DNA of 64,000 bases from Bdellovibrionales bacterium (GTDB taxonomy: Bacteria; Pseudomonadota; Alphaproteobacteria; UBA9219), in NCBI GenBank assembly GCA_040275305.1, contig JBEOJY010000033.1, positions 17,955 through 81,954 on the forward strand, written 5' to 3'. The notes under the pieces are model-generated. The model ran no database searches and was not told the DNA's origin. It saw nothing but the letters and a program-made list of their open reading frames with translations. Every line of letters begins with the position of its first letter. Position 1 is the first letter of the stretch. Positions 43,027 to 58,131 of the stretch are shown piece after piece. A program made the translations under genes and the position numbers.

Positions 43027-43100
43027 CCACCAGCCAAGCCATTGAAATAGCTGGTGGGTGCGACAGGGATTGAACCTGTGACCCCTACCATGTCAAGGTA
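43027..43100. repeat. attL: direct-repeat copy of the tRNA-Val 3' 49 nt plus about 25 bp of downstream sequence
   Basis: Positions 43052-43100 are identical to 58057-58105 (49/49). The flanking segments 43027-43051 and 58032-58056 match at about 21/25. Confidence 0.75.
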
Positions 43101-43277
43101 ATAACTCGTAATTTTCTTTCGCTTCCTTTTGCTTTCCTAACCTTACTAATATGTTATATATCAATGTGATTTCTTATTTCCGGTAAGGTAGATGTCTTGC
43201 CGTAAATCACCGTAATTTCCCTTTATCTGCTTCCTATGTGCTTCCTGTAGGGGCGCTACCTTCAGAAAGGAATCATA

Positions 43278-44525: not shown

Positions 44526-44702
44526 TGCTTTTACGCAACATTTTGACAAATTACCATTATTTTTCAATGCCTCACGATGGAAATCAACAATTGAAATTTA
44601 GGACAAAATGTCCTACATTCAGCATACCTAGTTCCCGCACGCCGAATCGGCCCCGGATGGGGTTCTTGGCAGCAATCGCTAGCCTAGGCTGCGGGAATGC
44701 CT

Positions 44703-45311
44703 CTATCTAAATCTCCATAAGTTTGCGATCTTCGGTGCTATCATGCCGTGCCAGCGTGAGGCGTCTTTTTTACCGGAGTAGGTGCGAGCTATTGCACCGG
44801 TTACCATATCGGCAAGCTGTATCAGGTGGTCATTACGAGAGGAAAGAAAAGTAATTTTCTTAATCTGGCCGTCTGGTATCATCCGCCTAATATATTGTGC
44901 CAGTTGCCTTTTGAACTCCCTGTCTCCGCTTTCGTCAATTTTAATGTGCGCCTTGTCTAGCATATGAGTGTGCTGTGAAATAAGTTGCCGGACGAAATAG
45001 TTGTAAAAACTGTCATTGCTTGTCCTTAAATGCTGGCTGTAGATTTCAGACTTGCGGACAGCAAGCGCGTATATTGAATAGTCAAACGGCGCAACGGCGG
45101 TGAAAAAGGCGTCCCTGATTTCGGCGCGGCTGTTGCTAAATTTGAATTCAGGGTAGATTTTCCTTTCCGCTTGAAGCTTCTTAATCGCCGCACTGCACTT
45201 TTCGGCTTCATCAAATGCCTTGAACACAATCATGCAGACGACAAAGAACTGCGAAGACCCTTTTTGGATCTTGAAACCAGAATCGCCGCTTTCGTCTATG
45301 AGTATAAGCAT
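44703..45311 (-). CDS. DUF3800 family protein
   Basis: Has the MLILIDESGDSGF N-terminus and the ...QLADMVTGAI motif characteristic of DUF3800. Confidence 0.55.
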   Translation of the reverse strand: MLILIDESGDSGFKIQKGSSQFFVVCMIVFKAFDEAEKCSAAIKKLQAERKIYPEFKFSNSRAEIRDAFFTAVAPFDYSIYALAVRKSEIYSQHLRTSNDSFYNYFVRQLISQHTHMLDKAHIKIDESGDREFKRQLAQYIRRMIPDGQIKKITFLSSRNDHLIQLADMVTGAIARTYSGKKDASRWHGMIAPKIANLWRFR

Positions 45312-45625: not shown

Positions 45626-45844
45626 AAGCCGATGATGGCAGCCATGAGCAAGAAAGCGTTTGAAAGCATTGCCGCGAGACTGCGCGAAGCCGTTGCACAC
45701 GCGCAAGAGGATGATCGCGCGGAGGCGAGGTTTTTTAGTGCATGAATATTGATGAGCATTGCTGGACAGGCTATGCTAATCTGTGATCGAAACCGTAGAT
45801 AATACGCTATCGTCTGAGTTTGTATGTTGGAAAAGGTCGCAAAA

Positions 45845-46303
45845 ATGAAACAACTTGTTCTTTGTTTGATTGTCACTTTATGTCTGTGCGGATGCGTTAC
45901 AACCAAGGATCGGATTAATCAGCTTGATAGTCAAATTCGTCAGCTGGAGGCGGAGCAACGTGCTAAGTTGCACAAGGAAATAGAATTGTATCGCAATGAA
46001 AAGAATTCAACATGTACATCAAAAAATCTTACGTACGCTGGTCTAAATATACACGCTTTTGAGCTTTCTAATGATAGAATAGATTCTACTAGTGATTATG
46101 ATTCAATCATAAAGAATGCCAATATGGCCCTTGAAGCGATCTTTGAACTTGCGGATTTAGCAAAGGAACGCAGGTGTTATAAAGATGCAGATAAACTATA
46201 CCGCCATGTCATTGAAAGATATGTTGGAGTTTACTATTCTGGCTTTCGCGACAGAGCAAGAATAGGCATTGATGACATAAGGGGATTACAAAAAATAAAA
46301 TAA
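45845..46303 (+). CDS. Hypothetical lipoprotein with a coiled-coil segment
   Basis: Has the lipobox LCLCGC and a heptad-like QLDSQIRQLEAEQRAKLHKEIELYRNEK. Confidence 0.45.
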   Translation: MKQLVLCLIVTLCLCGCVTTKDRINQLDSQIRQLEAEQRAKLHKEIELYRNEKNSTCTSKNLTYAGLNIHAFELSNDRIDSTSDYDSIIKNANMALEAIFELADLAKERRCYKDADKLYRHVIERYVGVYYSGFRDRARIGIDDIRGLQKIK

Positions 46304-48652: not shown

Positions 48653-51373
48653 ATGTCTCAGATCGCCCGCAAGGCGGCAACGCCTATGCTTTGCCTGACG
48701 AAAATTACTTCGGACCAAACGCTTGCGAAAGAATTCACCTTGGGGCCGAATGGAATTCTGTCGAAAAAGTCATGCGGGCAGCTAGTTGAGGGGGCAGCCG
48801 ATAGGCTTGAAATCGCAAATTTAATTGAGTTTGCGGCTATTCTTAAAGAGCTAACATCCGAGCAAGCTCTGACGTTTGGAGTTACAAAATATCTGCGCGC
48901 GCGAGTAAGGCCTAAAAGTTGCCTTAGCTCTGCGAATAGCAATGAGGCTATCGTTGCAAGGACGCGCGAGCATTTCAGCTTTATGCCGCAGGCTGGCGTC
49001 ATGATGTTCGATTACGATCAGCAGCCGAAAGTGGATGTACTCGATTCGGATGAACTGCGTCGGCGCATTCTGCGTGCCGTTCCAGAACTAACATCCGCGC
49101 CGATGCTTTGGCGTCCTTCGGCGTCAAGCTATATCGAAACGGAGGATGGACGAACAATTCTAGGGTTGGGTGGGCAACGACTGTATGTATCCGTCGCAGA
49201 CGCCTCGAAAATCCCCTTTGCAGGCAGTGCTATAGTCACGAGGTTATGGGCTGCTGGGTTTGGGTACGTCAAAATAAGCGGCGCGGGGAAAACGTTGCTG
49301 CGAACGATTGTTGATGATTCCGTATGGCAACCTGAAAGGCTGGACTTCGCGGGAGTGCCTAAGTTGGGGCAGGGCTTGCGGCGCAGCAACTTTGCGGAAA
49401 AATTTTGGAACAAATCCTCAGAACCGTTCGACTTATCTACAATCCAGCTTTCTGATGAAACGGAAAGCGAAGCTGAGAAGGCAAAAAATGCCGCAAAATC
49501 AGCCGCAGCGCCGGAATGCGCGCGCGTCCGCGGGGAGTGGATCGAAAAACAAGCGCAGCAAATTATGAATAAAGCTTCTATTTCTTACGAAGAGGCGCGG
49601 AAACAAGCCGAGCAAGCTGCGGAACAAAATACTCTAGGCCCTGACTTCATCCTACATACTCAGGACGGGAACAAGGTTTGCGTCCGTGAGTTGCTTGACA
49701 ATCCAGACCAATGGCATGAGACCCGCTTCGCCGATCCGTTTGAACCCAGCTACACTAATGATTCCCGCATCGCAGTTGCCTATCTGAAATGCTCCAAGCC
49801 CTGCATTTTCAGCCATGCGCACGGCGGCATCACCTATCATCTTTCTCGGGGGAAGCGTAGAGTTCAAATCGCAGAGGGACAACGCGCGCACGCCGTCGAT
49901 GAAGTTCTGCAAAGACTGCGAGAAAATGTAGAATTATACGACTACGGCTCAAGCGTTGCGCGTGTTGCTGGCGGGAAAATGGAAATCGTTACGCCTCCAT
50001 GGCTGGAAGACCATCTTTCACGGCGATTTGAATTTTTCAGCACGGCCAGAAGAAAGAATGGCGAGATTTATGAAAAATCCATCAATCCGCCGCAAAAAAT
50101 TGTCGAAGCGATTCTCGCGAAAGATGGGGAGAGGCAATTCCCCCGCCTGACTGCCGTGATTACCGCGCCGACGATGTGGGTGGACGGTGCAGTGCTTGAT
50201 CGCGAAGGGTATGACGCGCAAACAGGCCAGTTGCTTGTGAGAACAGGCGAGGATTTTTTCGCCGAAATCCCGCACACACCTTCGGTCGATCAAGCTATCG
50301 CGGCGCTTCGCAAACTTTGGGAGCCAATTAGCAAATTTCCGTTTGTCTGGGACGTTGATCGCGCCGTTGCGCTTGCGGCCTTGCTATCCACCTGCGTGCG
50401 GCCTGCGCTTCCGACTTGTCCGGGGTTTGCATTTGATGCGCCAGCGGCTGGGACTGGCAAAACTCTTTTGGCAAAGGTTGTCGGCGCGCTGGGAACAGGG
50501 AGAGAGCCGGATATTTTGCCTCCGGCGAGCGATCGCGATGATAGTGAAGCGCGGAAGCGGTTATTCGCGGCTCTTCGTGAAGGTCGTTCCGTCATTCTTT
50601 GGGACAACGTGAGTGGCAAGCTTGGCTTCCCAGCGTTGGACGCTTTTTTGACTGCGAAGGACTTTGCCGACCGGATACTTGGCGTCTCGCGTGTTGAAGC
50701 GCTTCCCAATCGTGCGCTGTTTCTGACTACCGGGAACAATTTGCGGATCGTTGGCGACACTTGCCGTCGCATCCTTGTGTCGCGGCTGGACGCGCGGGTT
50801 GAGCAACCCTACGCCCGAAAATTTGACTTTTGCCCTTTGGGCTATGCGCTGGAAAATCGGCAGGAACTTGTCGCGGCGGCGCTGACTTTCATTCGCGCCT
50901 GGTTCGCTTCTGGCGCGCCACATAGCGCACAGGGAAGCACAGCGTCTTTTGAAGACTGGGATCGCCTTGTCCGCCAGCCTATCGTTTGGATTGCGCAGCA
51001 TGTGCGGGACTGGCTACCGCTTGCCGATCCGTTAGAGGCTGTCAATCGTGCCTATCAAGGCGATGAAGAAATGGCGAAGTTGGAGGCGCTTGGAGCGGCC
51101 TGGTATGATGTTTTCAAGGAAGAATCTGCGACGCTAACCGAGGCCGAGCAGAAAACACGTTACTCCTGCGGTGATAAAAGCAAGCTGGAATCAAACTTGC
51201 GCGCGGCAATGCTTGCGATTGCGGGAGCGAATGGCTACGACGACCGGATCAATTCACGTATTCTTGGACATTTTTTGTGCGCCAATCGTGAGAGGCGTAC
51301 AGAACTCTTCCATTTCCTGCAAGACGGGAGAACCCACGGGCGGACGCGCTGGCGGGTGGTGGCTGACATTTAA
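48653..51373 (+). CDS. Large replication protein (primase/helicase-like P-loop NTPase) of the island
   Basis: A 906-aa protein with an AAGGAG Shine-Dalgarno. The Walker A motif FDAPAAGTGKTLLAKVV lies in the C-terminal third. Its size and its position after alpA are typical of P4-alpha or PICI Pri-Rep-type proteins. Confidence 0.55.
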   Translation: MSQIARKAATPMLCLTKITSDQTLAKEFTLGPNGILSKKSCGQLVEGAADRLEIANLIEFAAILKELTSEQALTFGVTKYLRARVRPKSCLSSANSNEAIVARTREHFSFMPQAGVMMFDYDQQPKVDVLDSDELRRRILRAVPELTSAPMLWRPSASSYIETEDGRTILGLGGQRLYVSVADASKIPFAGSAIVTRLWAAGFGYVKISGAGKTLLRTIVDDSVWQPERLDFAGVPKLGQGLRRSNFAEKFWNKSSEPFDLSTIQLSDETESEAEKAKNAAKSAAAPECARVRGEWIEKQAQQIMNKASISYEEARKQAEQAAEQNTLGPDFILHTQDGNKVCVRELLDNPDQWHETRFADPFEPSYTNDSRIAVAYLKCSKPCIFSHAHGGITYHLSRGKRRVQIAEGQRAHAVDEVLQRLRENVELYDYGSSVARVAGGKMEIVTPPWLEDHLSRRFEFFSTARRKNGEIYEKSINPPQKIVEAILAKDGERQFPRLTAVITAPTMWVDGAVLDREGYDAQTGQLLVRTGEDFFAEIPHTPSVDQAIAALRKLWEPISKFPFVWDVDRAVALAALLSTCVRPALPTCPGFAFDAPAAGTGKTLLAKVVGALGTGREPDILPPASDRDDSEARKRLFAALREGRSVILWDNVSGKLGFPALDAFLTAKDFADRILGVSRVEALPNRALFLTTGNNLRIVGDTCRRILVSRLDARVEQPYARKFDFCPLGYALENRQELVAAALTFIRAWFASGAPHSAQGSTASFEDWDRLVRQPIVWIAQHVRDWLPLADPLEAVNRAYQGDEEMAKLEALGAAWYDVFKEESATLTEAEQKTRYSCGDKSKLESNLRAAMLAIAGANGYDDRINSRILGHFLCANRERRTELFHFLQDGRTHGRTRWRVVADI

Positions 51374-51378
51374 CTCCT

Positions 51379-51607
51379 TTCGGGGTGAAAGGGTGATTTG
51401 ATTCCGGCCCTACAGCTCCGAGGCGCTACAGCGTGAAGCGCGGTGTGAGTTCCTATATCAGGAAGAAGAGGTATTCTCTCTTTATCTCTTTGTAAAATCT
51501 ATCTTTCTTCTCTAATGCAAAATGATTATGCATAGTATTAATCGTCCGCTTGGTGTTAGTCAGGTGAACTAAGCCGTAGGGCCGGAATCAAATCACCCTT
51601 TCACCCC
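51379..51607. repeat. 33-bp perfect inverted repeat flanking an AT-rich, CT-tract-rich spacer, a candidate ori/pac of the island
   Basis: CGGGGTGAAAGGGTGATTTGATTCCGGCCCTAC (51379-51411) and its exact reverse complement (51575-51607). The spacer contains TCTCTTTATCTCTTTG and TCTTTCTTCTCT. Confidence 0.55.
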
Positions 51608-51739
51608 GATCCAAATTAAATTGGTTTTCCACATTTATCATTCTTACTTTAGATTTCTTATTGTTACCTGATTTAGTCAAGTTTGTAGTTTTTTACACTT
51701 TTTTCGGGGTGATTGCGGGGTGATCACTTTGCTTCACGT

Positions 51740-52324
51740 TCATTCTCTCGCTTTAGCGTACATCATCCCCCAATCGCTTACTGCTCGGTCTATTAGCAGT
51801 CTGCTTTTTTCGTGCATATATTCTACAAACCGATCCCCCATAGTGAACGGTGGGGATATATCCCCAACTACTATCTTCGGGCCTATATCGTACTCGCCAT
51901 GTGACGTGACTACTTTCGTATCTTTATGATCTGTAATTTCGACTACTAAATCTGTTTTGCATACTGCATGGGGAGCTAACCAGCTATCAGCTCCGCAATA
52001 TGAGCTAAATTGGGATAATTTTATTCGTTTAATTATTGCGTTGTTCGGAATAGCAGCAGCAACGCGAGCAATTAGGTAATCGCCAACAGGTATTGTGTGG
52101 TAATCCTGTCCTGTTCTGGTTGGATATTTTATTGCCGCAAGTCGAAAACTTTCTGAATCTGTTTTTGACAAGAATGGATTATCTTTTACTTCTGCAATAA
52201 AGTTTGTGACTCCTACGGGCGGATATGTAACTGGCGCGTATCCGCCGCATGAAGTTAATGATAGTAATAGGAGATGGGGTAAAGTGGAGAAGCGAAACTT
52301 TGATTGTGTTGAGCCTTTTATCAT
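51740..52324 (-). CDS. Hypothetical lipoprotein in an AT-rich segment of the island
   Basis: Has the lipobox LLLSLTSCGG. Confidence 0.4.
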   Translation of the reverse strand: MIKGSTQSKFRFSTLPHLLLLSLTSCGGYAPVTYPPVGVTNFIAEVKDNPFLSKTDSESFRLAAIKYPTRTGQDYHTIPVGDYLIARVAAAIPNNAIIKRIKLSQFSSYCGADSWLAPHAVCKTDLVVEITDHKDTKVVTSHGEYDIGPKIVVGDISPPFTMGDRFVEYMHEKSRLLIDRAVSDWGMMYAKARE

Positions 52325-52553
52325 ATCTTCTCCTTGTCGCACTTAGTGGTAAACATTTCAACTACCTGTCACTTGAGTCAATCCCTGACATTACAGCCAA
52401 TTCATGAAAAAATATACAGTGCAACCACAAAAACAATTTCATAATTAATGATTAGCGATGATTAGTAAGAAATATACATTAACATACAATTTTATTTTTG
52501 CTTTAGCAATCACTATACTATGCTGAAATAAACTTTCTTTTTGGCCATACTGC

Positions 52554-53765
52554 ATGTTCAAGGCTTTCAGCCGCATTCTTCAGCGAGAGTCCAAGTCGGC
52601 GTTGTCTTCTTTTTTTGCGCCGATTTTCGGCGTTCCTTCATCGGCTTCCGGCGTTGCGGTGACGGCTGAAACGGCGCTGCGCAATTCGACGGTTTACGGG
52701 TGTGTGAAGGTTATATCCGAAGCCGTTGCGCAGCTTCCTTTGCGCCTTTACCGGAGGCTTCCCGACGGCGGGAAAGAACGCGCTACCGATCATCCGCTCG
52801 ACTCCCTACTAAACGAGCAGCCGAATGACTGGACATCCGCTTTTGATTTCAGATTGTTCATGCAGTCGTCGCTATGCCTGCATGGGAATGCCTTCGCATT
52901 TGTGAACAGGCTGGGCGGCAAAGTCGTGGAGCTGATTTCTATTCCGCCTTCCTGCGTCACGGTCGAAGTTGATCCGGTTACGATGGAGCCTGCTTATCGC
53001 GTCGCTTCGGCCAACGGAGAAAATCGTATTTATGGGCGACAGGAAATCCTTCACCTCAAAACGTTAGGCACGTTGCCGCAAATCGGCAAATCGCCTGTCG
53101 CGCTTATGAGCGAGGCTATCGGCGTTGCGATGGCTATGGAAGAACACGCCGCGCGCATTTTTTCTTCTGGGGCTAGGCCCGGCGGCGTTCTCAAATACGG
53201 AAAAACACTAACGGACAATGCTCTTAAGCAGTTGCGAGTAAGCCTTGAAACAGCGCATGTCGGTGGCGGCAACGCCGGGCGGACGATGATTCTCGAAGAC
53301 GGAATGACATTCGAGCCGCTTCAGTTTTCAAGTGTGGATATTCAATTTCTCGAAATGCGCAGGCATCAGGTCGCTGAAATTGCGCGAGCCTTCCGCGTTC
53401 CCCTCCATATGTTGCAAGACCTCGAACGAACCACGCATAGCAACGCCGAAAGCCTTGGACAGCAATTCTTATCCCTAACCCTGTTGCCTTGGCTGAAATG
53501 TTGGGAAGGCGGCATTCGCTCTTCGTTGCTGTCTCCCGAAGAGAGAGGTGTTTATTACGCGGAGTTCCTTACAGACGACCTAGCCCGCGCCGATCTTGCT
53601 GCACGTTTCGACGCCTACACCAAAGCGGTAACGAACGGGATTCTTTCCCCGAACGAGGTGCGCACTGCAGAAAATCGTACTCCTTATCTTGGTGGGGATC
53701 AATTCAGGCTTCCGCTGAATACGACACCCGCTGGAAAGGGGGGCGTTGCGCATGAATCGCTATAA
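52554..53765 (+). CDS. Phage portal protein, HK97 family
   Basis: The 403-aa protein has the HK97-type portal length and composition, with a conserved central core. Confidence 0.8.
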   Translation: MFKAFSRILQRESKSALSSFFAPIFGVPSSASGVAVTAETALRNSTVYGCVKVISEAVAQLPLRLYRRLPDGGKERATDHPLDSLLNEQPNDWTSAFDFRLFMQSSLCLHGNAFAFVNRLGGKVVELISIPPSCVTVEVDPVTMEPAYRVASANGENRIYGRQEILHLKTLGTLPQIGKSPVALMSEAIGVAMAMEEHAARIFSSGARPGGVLKYGKTLTDNALKQLRVSLETAHVGGGNAGRTMILEDGMTFEPLQFSSVDIQFLEMRRHQVAEIARAFRVPLHMLQDLERTTHSNAESLGQQFLSLTLLPWLKCWEGGIRSSLLSPEERGVYYAEFLTDDLARADLAARFDAYTKAVTNGILSPNEVRTAENRTPYLGGDQFRLPLNTTPAGKGGVAHESL

Positions 53766-55419
53766 CGTTAAAGCGCAACTCTCCGCGCATGAATCTGGCG
53801 TTTTTGCTGGATATGCCAGCGTGTTTGATGGTGAACCTGACAGTTACGGGGATGTCATTGCTCCGGGAGCTTTCGCGAAAAGTCTTGCTTCACACAGGTG
53901 CAAGGGAACCTTGCCAGTCTTACTGTGGCAACATGACCCAGGAGAGCCGATAGGTGTTTGGCTTGATCTCCGCGAAGATGTAACGGGGCTTTCCGTTACG
54001 GGCCGCCTCGTTCTTGAAACGCAGCGTGGGCGCGAAGCCTATGCGCTTTTGAAAGCCGGGGCCTTGAACGGCCTTTCGATTGGCTACCGCACACGTGCTT
54101 CTGAACGTCGAGCGGGCGGCGCACGGGTTTTGCAGGAACTTGAACTGATCGAAATATCACTTGTAACACTCCCGGCAGCATCAAAAGCGAGGGTTACAAG
54201 TATTAAGGCGGCTTCAGCCGTTTCACCCGCCGCCGATGAAGCGGCCAACAAGAGGAGGCAACCCATGGCCATAGCATTTAAGGCTCCAACAGTTCAAAAT
54301 GAAGAGGGGAAAGACCTTGAACCGCGTATTCTTTCTCTCGAAGAATCAGTCGTGAACATCGACACGCGCCTGAAGGCCGTTGAAGAAGGTGTTGGCAAAG
54401 TTGCCAAGTCAGCCGACCGCATTGAACAGAAGCTCAATCGACCGGGTTTCACGCCGGAGATACACCACTCTACCGAGAAATGCGAAAACAAAGCCTTCGC
54501 AGATTTTTTGCGGCGCGGAAGGGAAGCTTTACAGGTTGATGAAGTCAAGGCTTTGGTTGTTTCCCCGGATACGGCGGGAGGATATCTTGCTCCAAGCGAA
54601 TTTGTCGCGCAAGTTATCAAGGGGATTATTTCAGTTTCTCCCGTCAGACGAGCCGCGAAAGTAGGTACAACATCTTTAGGTGCTGTGACTTTGCCGAGAC
54701 GAACCGCTACGCCGACCGCGTCATGGGTTGGGGAGCTCACTGCGCGAAGTGGCACTGGCTCGACTTATGGACAGGCCGAGATTCAAGTTCATGAAATGGC
54801 TTGTTATGTGGATGTCTCCCTGCGGTTGCTTGAAGACGCAGCTGTCAATGTGGAAGCAGAAGTCGCTTCCGATCTTGCAGAAGAATTTGGCCGTCTCGAA
54901 GGAGCCTCATTCGTTTCCGGCAGTGGTATGAACCAGCCGTTTGGCATTTGTTCTGATGCCAATGTGAATTATACGCCGACAGGTAATGCGTCCGGGCTTC
55001 CTTCGTCCAATCCCGCTGATCCACTTATCTCTCTGATATACCTTCTGCCAGAGTTTTACCGAAACTCTGGCGTATGGATGATGAACGGTACAACGCTTGC
55101 AGCTTTGCGCAAGATAAAGACTGGTGATGGTCATTATCTTTGGCAACCGTCTTTTCAGGTAGGCCAACCAGAGACCCTGCTTGGGCGTCCGGTGATTGAA
55201 GCACCTGATATGCCGAATTTCGGTGCTGGCACCACACCGATCATCTTCGGAGATTTTTCCCGTGCTTATCGTATTTTCGATCACAAAAGCGTTTCGCTTT
55301 TGCGCGATCCATACAGTCAGGCCGCAAGCGGACTTGTGCGTTTTCATGCGCGAAGACGCGTTGGCGCTGCCGTGGTTTTGCCTGAAGCGATACGCAAGCT
55401 TAAATGCGCAACATCATAG
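53746..55419 (+). CDS. Fusion of an HK97-family prohead protease and a major capsid protein
   Basis: The N-terminal 170 aa or so form an S78-type protease (GYASVFDGEPDSYGDVIAPGAF...GLSIGY). The C-terminal 330 aa or so form an HK97-fold capsid protein (SGSGMNQPFGI..., with a coiled linker). Confidence 0.8.
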   Translation: MRMNRYNVKAQLSAHESGVFAGYASVFDGEPDSYGDVIAPGAFAKSLASHRCKGTLPVLLWQHDPGEPIGVWLDLREDVTGLSVTGRLVLETQRGREAYALLKAGALNGLSIGYRTRASERRAGGARVLQELELIEISLVTLPAASKARVTSIKAASAVSPAADEAANKRRQPMAIAFKAPTVQNEEGKDLEPRILSLEESVVNIDTRLKAVEEGVGKVAKSADRIEQKLNRPGFTPEIHHSTEKCENKAFADFLRRGREALQVDEVKALVVSPDTAGGYLAPSEFVAQVIKGIISVSPVRRAAKVGTTSLGAVTLPRRTATPTASWVGELTARSGTGSTYGQAEIQVHEMACYVDVSLRLLEDAAVNVEAEVASDLAEEFGRLEGASFVSGSGMNQPFGICSDANVNYTPTGNASGLPSSNPADPLISLIYLLPEFYRNSGVWMMNGTTLAALRKIKTGDGHYLWQPSFQVGQPETLLGRPVIEAPDMPNFGAGTTPIIFGDFSRAYRIFDHKSVSLLRDPYSQAASGLVRFHARRRVGAAVVLPEAIRKLKCATS

Positions 55420-55754
55420 ATCGCATAATGCCATGGTCGATTCCTAGACATTGCCCTGCGGGACATCCTCCTTTCACTGGGATGCGCTGTCCTGCCTGCG
55501 CCACGGTCAGAGATAAAAATAGGCCTAATGCTAGGCAGCGTGGCTATACGAAGCAGTGGCAATGCGAAGCGAAGTCCTTCCTTGGCACACATTCTTTTTG
55601 CCGCGCTTGCGGTGCGCGGGCCGCTGTCGTGGATCATGTTATCCCTCACAAGGGTAACATGGACTTGTTTTGGGATCGCACGAATTGGCAACCGCTTTGT
55701 GCGACTTGCCACAATCGTAAAACAGTTTCTCAAGATGGTGGTTTCGGAAGGTGA
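55404..55754 (+). CDS. HNH endonuclease
   Basis: The Cys/His pattern CPACA...CRACG...DHVIPH...CATCHNRK matches HNH. Confidence 0.7.
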   Translation: MRNIIDRIMPWSIPRHCPAGHPPFTGMRCPACATVRDKNRPNARQRGYTKQWQCEAKSFLGTHSFCRACGARAAVVDHVIPHKGNMDLFWDRTNWQPLCATCHNRKTVSQDGGFGR

Positions 55755-55868
55755 ATGAGTCGTTCAGAAGGAGGGAGGGGGGGGGGGGGATTGAAAATTT
55801 CTTCTGACAAAGATCGGTACCGTATGGGAGGTCTTGCGCACGTTTTTTGGGAAATTGGAGTTTTTTAA

Positions 55869-56279
55869 ATGAAGGGGCGTAAACCTAATCTTGTAGCTTT
55901 AGTTAACCCTGCGTCTTCTGAGACATTCAACGCTGCCCCTTTATGGCTTACGCGGCAAGCGAGAGAGGAATGGGAGCGCGTCGCGCCCTGCTTACGCAAT
56001 CGCAACCTTTTCACTGCGGATACGGTGGCAATGCTCGAACATTATTGCCTCGCGGTCGGACAAATCCGAGAAACTGAGGCGCTTATGCGCAGGGACGGGC
56101 GCTTGATAGTGACGACGAAAGGTACAATCCCTCATCCGGCCTTTCGTGTGCAATGCGCTGCCATGCGCGAAGCCCGCTTGTTGGCCGCCGAGCTTGGTCT
56201 TTCACCTCATCGCAGCGCCATCCATGGGCCTAAGGGATCGAACAAAGATGACGCATGGGACACCGATCTTCTCGCCTGA
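55869..56279 (+). CDS. Terminase small subunit, P27 family
   Basis: A 136-aa protein. EHYCLAVGQIRETEALMRRDGRLI is typical of P27 TerS. Confidence 0.7.
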   Translation: MKGRKPNLVALVNPASSETFNAAPLWLTRQAREEWERVAPCLRNRNLFTADTVAMLEHYCLAVGQIRETEALMRRDGRLIVTTKGTIPHPAFRVQCAAMREARLLAAELGLSPHRSAIHGPKGSNKDDAWDTDLLA

Positions 56280-57858
56280 CCCGACGTTGTACGACGATCC
56301 GACAGGGCGTGCCGACAGAATCTGCCGTTTCGTCCATCGTTTACGCCTTTGGGAAGGTGATTTCGCTGGAAAGCCATTTACTCTCAACCGTTTTCAGGAA
56401 GCCATAATCCGCCGAATTTATGGCCCGACGAATGCCGACGGGACACGAGCTGTGCGGATCGCTTGCATATGGATTCCGCGAGGCAATGCGAAAACAACAC
56501 TTGCCGCAGCGCTTGCCCTTGCGCATTTCTTGGGGCCAGAAGCGGAAGCAGGCGGGCAAGTCGTTTTGGCCGCCGCTGATCGCGAAAATGCGGGTATTGC
56601 ATTCAATTCTGCTCATCAATTTGCGTTGCAAGACGAAGCGCTTGTCTCGCGCATTAGGGCGGCAGAAAGCCGAAAATCCCTTACGCATCCAAAAACCAAA
56701 AGTATCTTAAAAGCCATATCATCTGAAGCTTATTCTAAACATGGCCTTAACGTCTCTTTCTTTCTCGCCGACGAAATCCATGCTTGGCCAACAAGTGAAG
56801 GGCGCAAGCTTTTCAAGACTGTTACAGATTCCATGGTAAAGCGGGCGCATCCGCTTAGTGTAGTCATTTCGACCGCAGGAGAAGGGCAAGGCGGCCTTGC
56901 ATGGGACATGTGGAAATATTCACACCGTGTGGCGATGGGTGAAATAGAAGACCCGTCCTTCGCTCCCATTATCTTCGCAGCAGATTCGGGAGATTGGCGT
57001 AATGAAGAAGCTTGGTGCGTTGCCAATCCTGCTATTGCAGCGGGTTTTTGTTCCATCGACGAATTGAGGATTAAGGCCCGTCGGATCGAACATTTTCCTT
57101 CCGAGATAGCTGATTTCCGGCGCTATCACCTAAATCAGTGGCAGGAAGGCACGGCGCAGCCGTGGCTTGATCCTGCCTTGTACGACACCGCGCAAGCCAT
57201 GACTCCGCTTTGCGAATTGACAGGCCGTAAATGCTGGATTGGGATCGACCTTTCCAGCGTCGAAGACTTGACCGCCGTTGTCGCCGTCTTTCCCGATGGA
57301 GAGGGAGAAAATCGCTGTTACGACGTTTTGCCGATGTTTTTCTTGCCGGAAGCGAATATTGCCCGCAAGGGCGAAAAGGACAGGGCCGATTATGTGCGCT
57401 GGGCGCAAGAAGGCTTCCTAAAACTCACGCCCGGCAACGTGGTGGATCATGCTGCGGTAGTGGAATATGTCGCGATGCTTGGCGAGCGGTACGGTGTACA
57501 GGAAATCGCAATCGACCGATGGAATTCTACGGCGGTGAATACAGGCCTGCAAGAACGCGGGTTTGCAATAAATCAGTTTGGGCAAGGTTTCGCGAGCATG
57601 GCCGCTCCCGTAAGGGAGTTAAAACGGGCGATCCTTTCAGGACGCTTTCGGCATGGCGGAAATCCTTTGCTGCGCCTTTGCTTCAACAACGTAGTCGCTG
57701 AAAAAGACGCGGCCGAAAACGAGAAATTCACCAAGGAAAAAGCTAGGGGGCGCATAGACGGGGCCGTTGCTTCGACAATGGCTATCGGGCGTATCCTTTC
57801 CGGCGAAGCAAGCGTTTCTCCATATGAAAGCCGCGAAGGCGGTTTTCTTTTTCTTTAG
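56248..57858 (+). CDS. Terminase large subunit
   Basis: Has an ATPase Walker A-like IPRGNAKTTLAAALA and a C-terminal nuclease domain. It overlaps the terS end. Confidence 0.8.
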   Translation: MTHGTPIFSPDPTLYDDPTGRADRICRFVHRLRLWEGDFAGKPFTLNRFQEAIIRRIYGPTNADGTRAVRIACIWIPRGNAKTTLAAALALAHFLGPEAEAGGQVVLAAADRENAGIAFNSAHQFALQDEALVSRIRAAESRKSLTHPKTKSILKAISSEAYSKHGLNVSFFLADEIHAWPTSEGRKLFKTVTDSMVKRAHPLSVVISTAGEGQGGLAWDMWKYSHRVAMGEIEDPSFAPIIFAADSGDWRNEEAWCVANPAIAAGFCSIDELRIKARRIEHFPSEIADFRRYHLNQWQEGTAQPWLDPALYDTAQAMTPLCELTGRKCWIGIDLSSVEDLTAVVAVFPDGEGENRCYDVLPMFFLPEANIARKGEKDRADYVRWAQEGFLKLTPGNVVDHAAVVEYVAMLGERYGVQEIAIDRWNSTAVNTGLQERGFAINQFGQGFASMAAPVRELKRAILSGRFRHGGNPLLRLCFNNVVAEKDAAENEKFTKEKARGRIDGAVASTMAIGRILSGEASVSPYESREGGFLFL

Positions 57859-58056
57859 GAGTTTAGCGCTGTGCGCCTTCCGGCAAAAGAAGCGCGGGAG
57901 GACAATCTTTGCTTGAATAAAGTGACGCAGAAACGGCTTATACAAATTCGCCAGCAAAGCTTGATGGAGCCGTCGCGCTCAATCGATTCTGCTTCCTATG
58001 TGCTTCCTGTTTGATTGTCTTGCCTTCACCGCCACCAGCTAAGTCTTTGAAATAGC

Positions 58057-58131
58057 TGGTGGGTGCGACAGGGATTGAACCTGTGACCCCTACCATGTCA
58101 AGGTAGTGCTCTCCCGCTGAGCTACGCACCC
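58057..58131 (-). tRNA. tRNA-Val (anticodon GAC). Its 3' end faces the island and is the integration target.
   Basis: The reverse complement is GGGTGCGTAGCTCAGCGGGAGAGCACTACCTTGACATGGTAGGGGTCACAGGTTCAATCCCTGTCGCACCCACCA. It folds as a cloverleaf with a 7-bp acceptor stem, an anticodon loop TTGACAT and a TTCAATC T-loop. Confidence 0.85.

Follow-up and report, generated by a model that had tools for sequence, protein, structure and literature searches.

The island and its primase-helicase gene

The window, i.e., the whole 64-kb stretch of DNA analysed here, comes from a MAG labelled Bdellovibrionales. It contains an island of about 15 kb, with a 74-nt direct repeat of the tRNA-Val 3′ end at either boundary (43027-43100 and 58032-58105). 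The genes of this island encode an arm-binding tyrosine integrase, a DUF3800 protein, the products of several unknown ORFs, a protein of 906 amino acids, a lipoprotein, and a capsid/packaging module. This module (52554-57858) consists of portal, a 557-aa fusion of an S78 protease with an HK97 capsid protein, HNH, TerS and TerL, in that order; about 130 nt are shared between the TerS and TerL ORFs as listed. Neither head-tail connector genes nor tail genes were found in the island.

Other features of the island were observed in passing. Just inside both of its ends is a perfect 23-nt direct repeat, TCTGCTTCCTATGTGCTTCCTGT (43226-43248 and 57988-58010), which is distinct from the 74-nt tRNA-Val att repeat; its two copies probably serve the island integrase as arm-type binding sites. 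Directly next to the DUF3800 gene (44703-45311, − strand) is a DUF3800-IX RNA motif (Rfam RF02968, 43.9 bits; 44632-44701, + strand). A second putative lipoprotein cargo gene, of 159 aa (45824-46303, + strand), is weakly similar to the Cor superinfection-exclusion lipoprotein (PHROG E-value 0.0012).

The element considered here lies between two convergent genes. On one side is the gene for the 906-aa protein, the candidate initiator (48653-51373, + strand). On the other is ORF200 (51740-52342, − strand), which encodes the lipoprotein, recognizable by the lipobox LLLSLTSCGG; this protein showed no family match, and no homologue of it is present in any of the related loci described below.

The first-pass annotation of this DNA had labelled the gene of the 906-aa protein as a primase. 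By sequence, the only families that matched the protein were PHROG families annotated as primase; sequence and profile searches gave no match in Pfam, NCBIfam or the PDB, and a phage collection yielded partial-domain homologues only. It was by structure prediction alone that the protein was identified. The AlphaFold (AF2) model has a mean pLDDT of 93.6, and its top PDB matches in Foldseek are ASFV PrimPol, Mpox E5 and vaccinia D5, with E-values from 4e-10 to 1e-8. Judged from this predicted structure, the protein is a fusion of an AEP primase and an SF3 helicase, which supports the label given to the gene. The Walker A motif, G600-x-GKT604, is located in the SF3/D5-like helicase. In an alignment of 86 sequences, the DxD motif of the AEP-type primase domain (D120, D122) and Walker A (G602, K603) are invariant.

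The C-terminal domain (residues 828-904) adopts a helix-helix-helix-strand-strand topology in the AF2 model. When this domain was modeled separately (pLDDT 84), no PDB match was significant, the best having an E-value of 0.34, and the scattered winged helix-turn-helix (wHTH) proteins among the matches had probabilities of at most 0.23; the winged-helix assignment is therefore made by analogy. Sequence identity in the C-terminal domain is slightly the best predictor of whether two relatives share iterons, with an AUC of 0.85 as against 0.72-0.80 for the other domains, a correlation that is weak and phylogenetically confounded. Taken together, the topology, the analogy and this correlation suggest that the C-terminal domain is probably the one that binds the iterons.

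The inverted repeat and its surroundings

The 33-mer CGGGGTGAAAGGGTGATTTGATTCCGGCCCTAC has exactly two occurrences in the 64-kb window, one on each strand (51381-51413, +; 51576-51608, −), while 100 dinucleotide-preserving shuffles gave no match to it with 3 mismatches allowed. The perfect 33-bp inverted repeat pointed out in the first-pass annotation is thus confirmed. Its perfect complementarity in fact extends over 34 nt, one base more than the 33-mer, so that the arms span 51380-51413 and 51576-51609. The distance between them, 162 bp, agrees with the earlier estimate of about 160 bp; the feature had been placed correctly at 51379-51607, except that both ends were off by 1-2 nt. Imperfect pairing continues out to 50 nt, with 88% of positions paired (51368-51417 with 51572-51621), and reaches the stop codon of the primase gene (TAA, 51371-51373). 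The left arm begins 7 nt past this stop codon, in keeping with the reported position directly downstream of the gene.

An independent Logan assembly of the same island (a contig from SRR28882998) stops at position 30 of the 34 positions of the arm. This is where a k=31 unitig is expected to break at a perfect repeat of at least 31 nt, and it follows that the repeat is present in the reads and is not a product of scaffolding.

Each arm has two parts. The left arm (51380-51413, +), which has its G-rich strand on top, carries two iterons, GGGGTGA at 51382-51388 and GGGTGA at 51391-51396, 8-9 nt apart, followed by an 18-nt non-iteron extension, TTTGATTCCGGCCCTAC. The right arm (51576-51609, −) is the exact reverse complement of the left, with TCACCC at 51593-51598 and 51601-51606. 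The 18-nt extension is identical in both arms and lies outside what the origin model proposed below accounts for.

The core between the arms (51414-51575) was described earlier as AT-rich. This holds for its centre, 95 bp with 29% GC (51451-51545), but not for the core as a whole; the 162 bp have 42% GC overall, with GC-rich shoulders at 51414-51450 (65%) and 51546-51575 (53%). The 80-bp window at 51462 has the 9th lowest GC content in the 64 kb, and the centre of the core is a candidate DNA-unwinding element. The CT-rich short repeats noted in the core are present as well, though only as 6-7-mers in two copies (TCTCTTT, TTCTCT), and carry little weight.

Beyond the right arm is a second AT-rich tract of 95 bp (51610-51704), with 24% GC; among the 80-bp windows of the 64 kb, it ranks 3rd lowest in GC. 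Within it, TTTTCCACA at 51625-51633 matches the DnaA-box consensus; this match is one of six in the window and is weak evidence. The tract is followed by a third iteron pair, GGGGTGA-TTGC-GGGGTGA (51706-51723, + strand), which has an 11-nt period and corresponds to GGGGTGGAATGCGGGGTGGA of the closest relative (L003, see below). That is, the element reaches about 130 bp past the end first assigned to it, and the earlier description had missed the second AT-rich tract and the third pair beyond that end as well as the two GGGTGA iterons of each arm. GGGTGA is found at 24 sites in the 64 kb, and 6 of these fall within 51383-51723, a span of 340 bp in which about 0.13 would be expected. No further iteron cluster was found in the island. 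The short GGGTGA iterons, and not the 33-mer as such, are probably the functional units.

The intergenic region as a whole (51374-51739) contains no ORF and no sigma-70-like promoter, and no Rfam RNA family was detected in the element, either in a scan of the window at gathering thresholds or in a permissive scan of 51300-51800. Overlapping the outer end of the left arm is a small hairpin, CCTTTC-GGGGT-GAAAGG, with 6-8 bp followed by a T-rich run (51375-51393, + strand), which may be a weak intrinsic terminator of the primase gene. It is the sole terminator-like site in 51200-52700, where 1.6 are expected by chance; since the count of such sites is at chance frequency, the evidence for a terminator is weak. 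The inverted repeat itself is far larger than a terminator needs to be, as had been remarked at the outset, in that arms of 34 nt and a loop of 162 nt do not fit a short hairpin followed by a U tract.

The repeat in relatives of the primase-helicase

The family to which the 906-aa protein belongs extends over 326 confirmed metagenomic loci, 37 viral contigs and several plasmids, and is named in no curated database. For comparison, we collected 37 viral loci and 80 of the metagenomic ones. The stop codon of the primase-helicase gene could be placed in 90 loci, including the window. A megablast of the region against E. coli genomes gave no match.

Of 68 dereplicated loci, 31 (46%) have an inverted repeat with a score of at least 14 at the stop codon, as against 3 of 442 control windows (0.7%); with a score of at least 16, the corresponding figures are 37% and 0.2%. 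In about half of the 68 dereplicated relatives, no inverted repeat exceeds the threshold. When 7-mer clusters were compared across each entire locus, the strongest was the one at the stop in 29 of 85 loci. Among 25 loci positive for the inverted repeat, the repeat starts at +8 nt, with an arm of 25 nt and a spacer of 77 bp (medians); the GC content of the spacer is 13 points below the mean of the locus, and in 23 of the 25 the gene-proximal arm has its G-rich strand on top. The loci that were printed out share a common layout, namely two or three iterons repeated in tandem every 9 nt just past the stop codon, then a spacer, and then the same iterons inverted. The iteron motifs themselves vary by lineage, and include GCGGGTA, AGTGGGG, AGGGGGT, CGCTTTT and GGTGGGTTT, among others. 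The repeat accompanies the gene whatever is encoded downstream, be it a terminase and portal, a helicase, or a serine recombinase, and it persists in relatives whose N-terminal domain is unrelated. Within this family the window is an extreme; no other member has perfect arms or a spacer as long, the spacer, at 162 bp, being twice the median.

The closest relative, L003 (71% identity), is the only one above 50% identity. It carries iterons that differ by one base, GGGGTGGA, paired in the 8-nt and 11-nt formats seen in the window. Its contig ends about 23 nt into the CGGGGTGGAAGGGTGGA iteron pair, and it may likewise carry a repeat of at least 31 nt.

In a clade with 41-49% identity, the same inverted sets straddle the stop codon within coding sequence. 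Five loci of this clade (L004, L055, L057, L059 and L065) have origin-like iterons embedded in coding DNA, between −130 and +220 relative to the stop; tandem repeats of the AAACCCACC or AGTTGCG type code for the C-terminal tail of the initiator, which is variable and repetitive, and the next ORF contains the inverted set.

Four other loci (L005, L044, L051 and L118) have a different kind of cluster about 5.5-6 kb upstream of the primase stop codon, made up of 5-9 copies of GGGGGCA in mixed orientation. These clusters are near the integrase end of the respective elements, and may be arm-type or att-associated sites.

Homologues of the primase-helicase are also encoded by small plasmids that carry no packaging genes. 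The Psychrobacter plasmid pA32H2 (6,547 bp) encodes AlpA-like, wHTH and Sel1-repeat proteins, small unassigned ORFs, and a 933-aa homologue, with no classical Rep protein among its genes. The gene of the homologue is followed by three copies of GGTAGGGAT, an AT-rich spacer of 93 bp, and the inverted set, which together constitute the best inverted repeat in the plasmid (6370-6524); a canonical terminator hairpin lies upstream of this repeat and separate from it. In pA17P3, a 16-bp perfect repeat is found at the same place after the homologue. A search of the literature returned nothing on either plasmid. Elsewhere in pA32H2, a non-coding tandem array of about six copies of ACAAGCAATC, with a 10-bp period (2297-2354), lies upstream of the alpA-like gene. 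This array is a second candidate cis site of the plasmid, i.e., an operator, a partition site or an alternative origin.

A predicted replication origin and its alternatives

Because inverted iterons around a low-GC spacer recur at the stop codon across the family, and because this arrangement matches that of the SaPI ori, we consider it likely that 51374-51739 is the vegetative replication origin of the integrated, satellite-like island, with the arms as binding sites of the initiator. The presence of the repeat in small plasmids lends this prediction further support. The first-pass annotation had compared the position of the repeat to that of PICI and P4 origins, and this part of its interpretation is supported by the comparison with control windows, by the plasmids and by the plan of the SaPI ori.

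The mechanism that we envisage would begin with induction of the island, whereupon its own primase-helicase would recognize the GGGTGA iterons, of which two in each arm face those of the other arm and two more lie beyond the second AT-rich tract. On the oppositely oriented arrays, two SF3-helicase hexamers would be nucleated face to face on either side of the AT-rich centre, which they would melt. The AEP primase domain of the same protein would then lay the first primers, and a host polymerase would copy the excised circle in both directions. In this scheme we infer the iteron-binding domain, the loading of the double hexamer, the choice of the AT-rich tract that melts, of the two present, and the replication activity itself.

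A broader reading of the data may also be entertained, albeit one that we regard as rather doubtful. The primase-helicase together with the inverted iterons may form a module that defines a large uncurated replicon family, spread over satellites, prophages, phages and small plasmids, with iterons that move into and out of coding sequence. The origin in the window would then be composite, the 18-nt extension being a site for a second factor, and the second AT-rich tract, with its DnaA-box-like site, and the third iteron pair being further components. Such a composite origin could mean that there are two alternative unwinding sites, or that a helper- or host-dependent switch operates between them.

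The extension and the third pair are superfluous to a simple origin model, and thus bear also on a different proposal, which we consider unlikely, namely that the repeats are sites bound by the primase-helicase or by some other protein of the island and have a regulatory role, such as copy control or handcuffing, a roadblock or terminator, or a partition-like site, and that the true origin is elsewhere. The location of the region between the convergent primase and lipoprotein genes is consistent with this proposal, as is the overlap between the left arm and the small terminator-like hairpin, and the second repeat array of pA32H2 could be the actual origin of that plasmid. However, conserved inverted iterons together with a low-GC spacer are the signature of an unwinding site. 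In addition, the terminator hairpin of pA32H2 is separate from the repeat, and the island has no second iteron cluster.

That the element is a cos or pac packaging signal, read by the HNH, TerS and TerL proteins of the island, seems to us very improbable. The island does have its own set of these genes, and, as the first-pass annotation pointed out in proposing a pac site, some such sites adjoin replication genes. Yet what the repeat tracks is the primase-helicase, in relatives with a different adjacent terminase or with none, as well as in plasmids that have no packaging genes; moreover, the element is 3.8 kb away from the HNH gene at 55404. The proposal of a pac site is therefore not supported.

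Perfect long inverted repeats around 100-700 bp are typical of invertons, and the 162-bp core between perfect long arms fits this description; a site-specific recombinase would in that case flip the core. The only other contig of the island, that from Logan, ends within the arm, and the orientation of the core is not resolvable from an assembly at k=31. Nonetheless, an inverton is highly unlikely, since the neighbouring ORFs contain no resolvase or invertase domain, the sole recombinase being the phage-type integrase at the end of the island, and the adjacent ORF200 is a lipoprotein without a family match. The core also lacks a sigma-70-like promoter, both flanking genes end and do not start at the element, and the iterons of the arms are found outside the arms and in relatives.

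Lastly, a MITE inserted by chance after the primase gene would explain a 230-bp unit that is non-coding inside and ends in perfect inverted repeats, but it is scarcely credible, given that the unit is present in a single copy in the 64-kb window with 3 mismatches allowed, that the 33-mer is absent from the viral contigs, that a 20-mer scan of 185,579 species genomes returned two unpaired single-copy matches, about the chance expectation, that the flanks (CTCCTT and TCCAAA) show no target-site duplication, and that the arms consist of the iterons of the family at its canonical position. Membership in a MITE family found elsewhere, which the first-pass annotation had named as an outcome that would speak against its reading, was accordingly not seen in the window, in the viral contigs or in the species genomes.

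A 22-mer of the arm, AAAGGGTGATTTGATTCCGGTG, is shared with two gammaproteobacterial MAGs that are unrelated, one of Legionellaceae (L001, 3925-3944) and one of Nitrincola (L002, 4909-4928). Each match is single-copy and has no partner arm, and both are probably conserved coding stretches for K-G-D-L-I-P-V that match by chance.

Further candidates were rejected. A protelomerase target and a rolling-circle origin were both set aside, in that 162 bp interrupt the palindrome and the island ORFs scanned yielded neither a protelomerase gene nor an HUH gene. ORF200 was likewise dismissed as a partner or recombinase, being a lipoprotein with no homologue in the related loci.

The predicted origin and known systems

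Origins of this kind are already known; the one predicted here is attached to a primase-helicase family that is uncurated but widespread. The analysis provides a concrete candidate origin for this family, which is common in metagenomes, together with a simple rule for annotation, by which the place to search is the stop codon of the primase-helicase gene and the pattern to search for is a low-GC spacer with tandem iterons, inverted with respect to each other, on its two sides. This rule could be used to annotate origins in many satellites and prophages, and the iteron sequence could define incompatibility or specificity groups. The gene together with about 370 bp could serve as a minimal replicon for poorly tractable bacteria. 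The view of how such origins work is left unchanged.

Because capsid and packaging genes are present and tail and connector genes were not found, the island resembles, in gene content, a capsid-forming PICI (cf-PICI). Elements of this type encode capsid, protease, portal, head-tail connectors, HNH, TerS and TerL, and no tails (bioRxiv 10.1101/2022.09.08.507074). Further points of likeness are the size of about 15 kb, the integration at a tRNA gene, and the presence of an integrase and a replication module; the genes for portal, protease, capsid, HNH, TerS and TerL are the island's own, and tail genes were not found. In contrast to the cf-PICIs, connectors were not detected here, the genes follow an order other than the one reported for proteobacterial cf-PICIs, and the replication protein belongs to another family.

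At the level of mechanism, a parallel may be drawn with papillomavirus E1 and SV40 large T antigen, whose inverted-repeat sites lie beside AT-rich DNA and on which two hexamers assemble in opposite orientation. Their helicase fold class is the same as that of the best structural matches of the model obtained here. The analogy is mechanistic only, since these are proteins of eukaryotic viruses that have no fused primase and far more compact sites.

Satellite P4 is another integrative element with an origin of short iterons next to the gene of its initiator, the alpha protein. P4 alpha has a non-AEP primase domain and TGTTCACC-type iterons, and a second, distant cis region (crr) is required. By contrast, the primase of the island is predicted to be of the AEP type, and all of the repeats described here lie within 350 bp. 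Primase, SF3 helicase and origin binding are combined in one polypeptide in P4 alpha (described in general terms in PMC7145576).

Also among the closest known systems are the origins of SaPI1, SaPIbov1 and SaPI5, the last of which has a fused PriRep5. The SaPI ori is located immediately downstream of rep, and has an AT-rich centre with at least two iterons on each side in opposite directions; SaPI Rep and PriRep are self-loading SF3 helicases, with the primase fused to the helicase in SaPI5 (PMC9371898). Origins of this type are further characterized by iteron recognition through a C-terminal winged-helix domain, by binding and melting of the ori by Rep, and by autonomous replication of rep together with ori. 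There are also differences. The protein described here has no detectable sequence similarity to curated families, and so represents a different primase-helicase lineage, and its C-terminal domain gave no significant winged-helix match. There are only two iterons in each arm, plus the symmetric 18-nt extension, and to these are added the 162-bp spacer, the second AT-rich tract and the third iteron pair; the host, moreover, is a Gram-negative MAG labelled Bdellovibrionales. Nevertheless, the SaPI/PICI plan is recognizable in position, in iteron layout and in the predicted type of initiator. The origin follows directly upon rep or pri-rep in those elements, just as the arm here begins 7 nt past the stop codon and at a median of +8 in the 25 relatives. 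Two convergent GGGTGA iterons per arm surround a centre with 29% GC. A predicted SF3 helicase with an invariant Walker A motif is fused to a primase, as PriRep5 is in SaPI5, and in both cases the initiator, a candidate one here, is encoded by an integrated element, a phage satellite in the SaPIs and a satellite-like island here.
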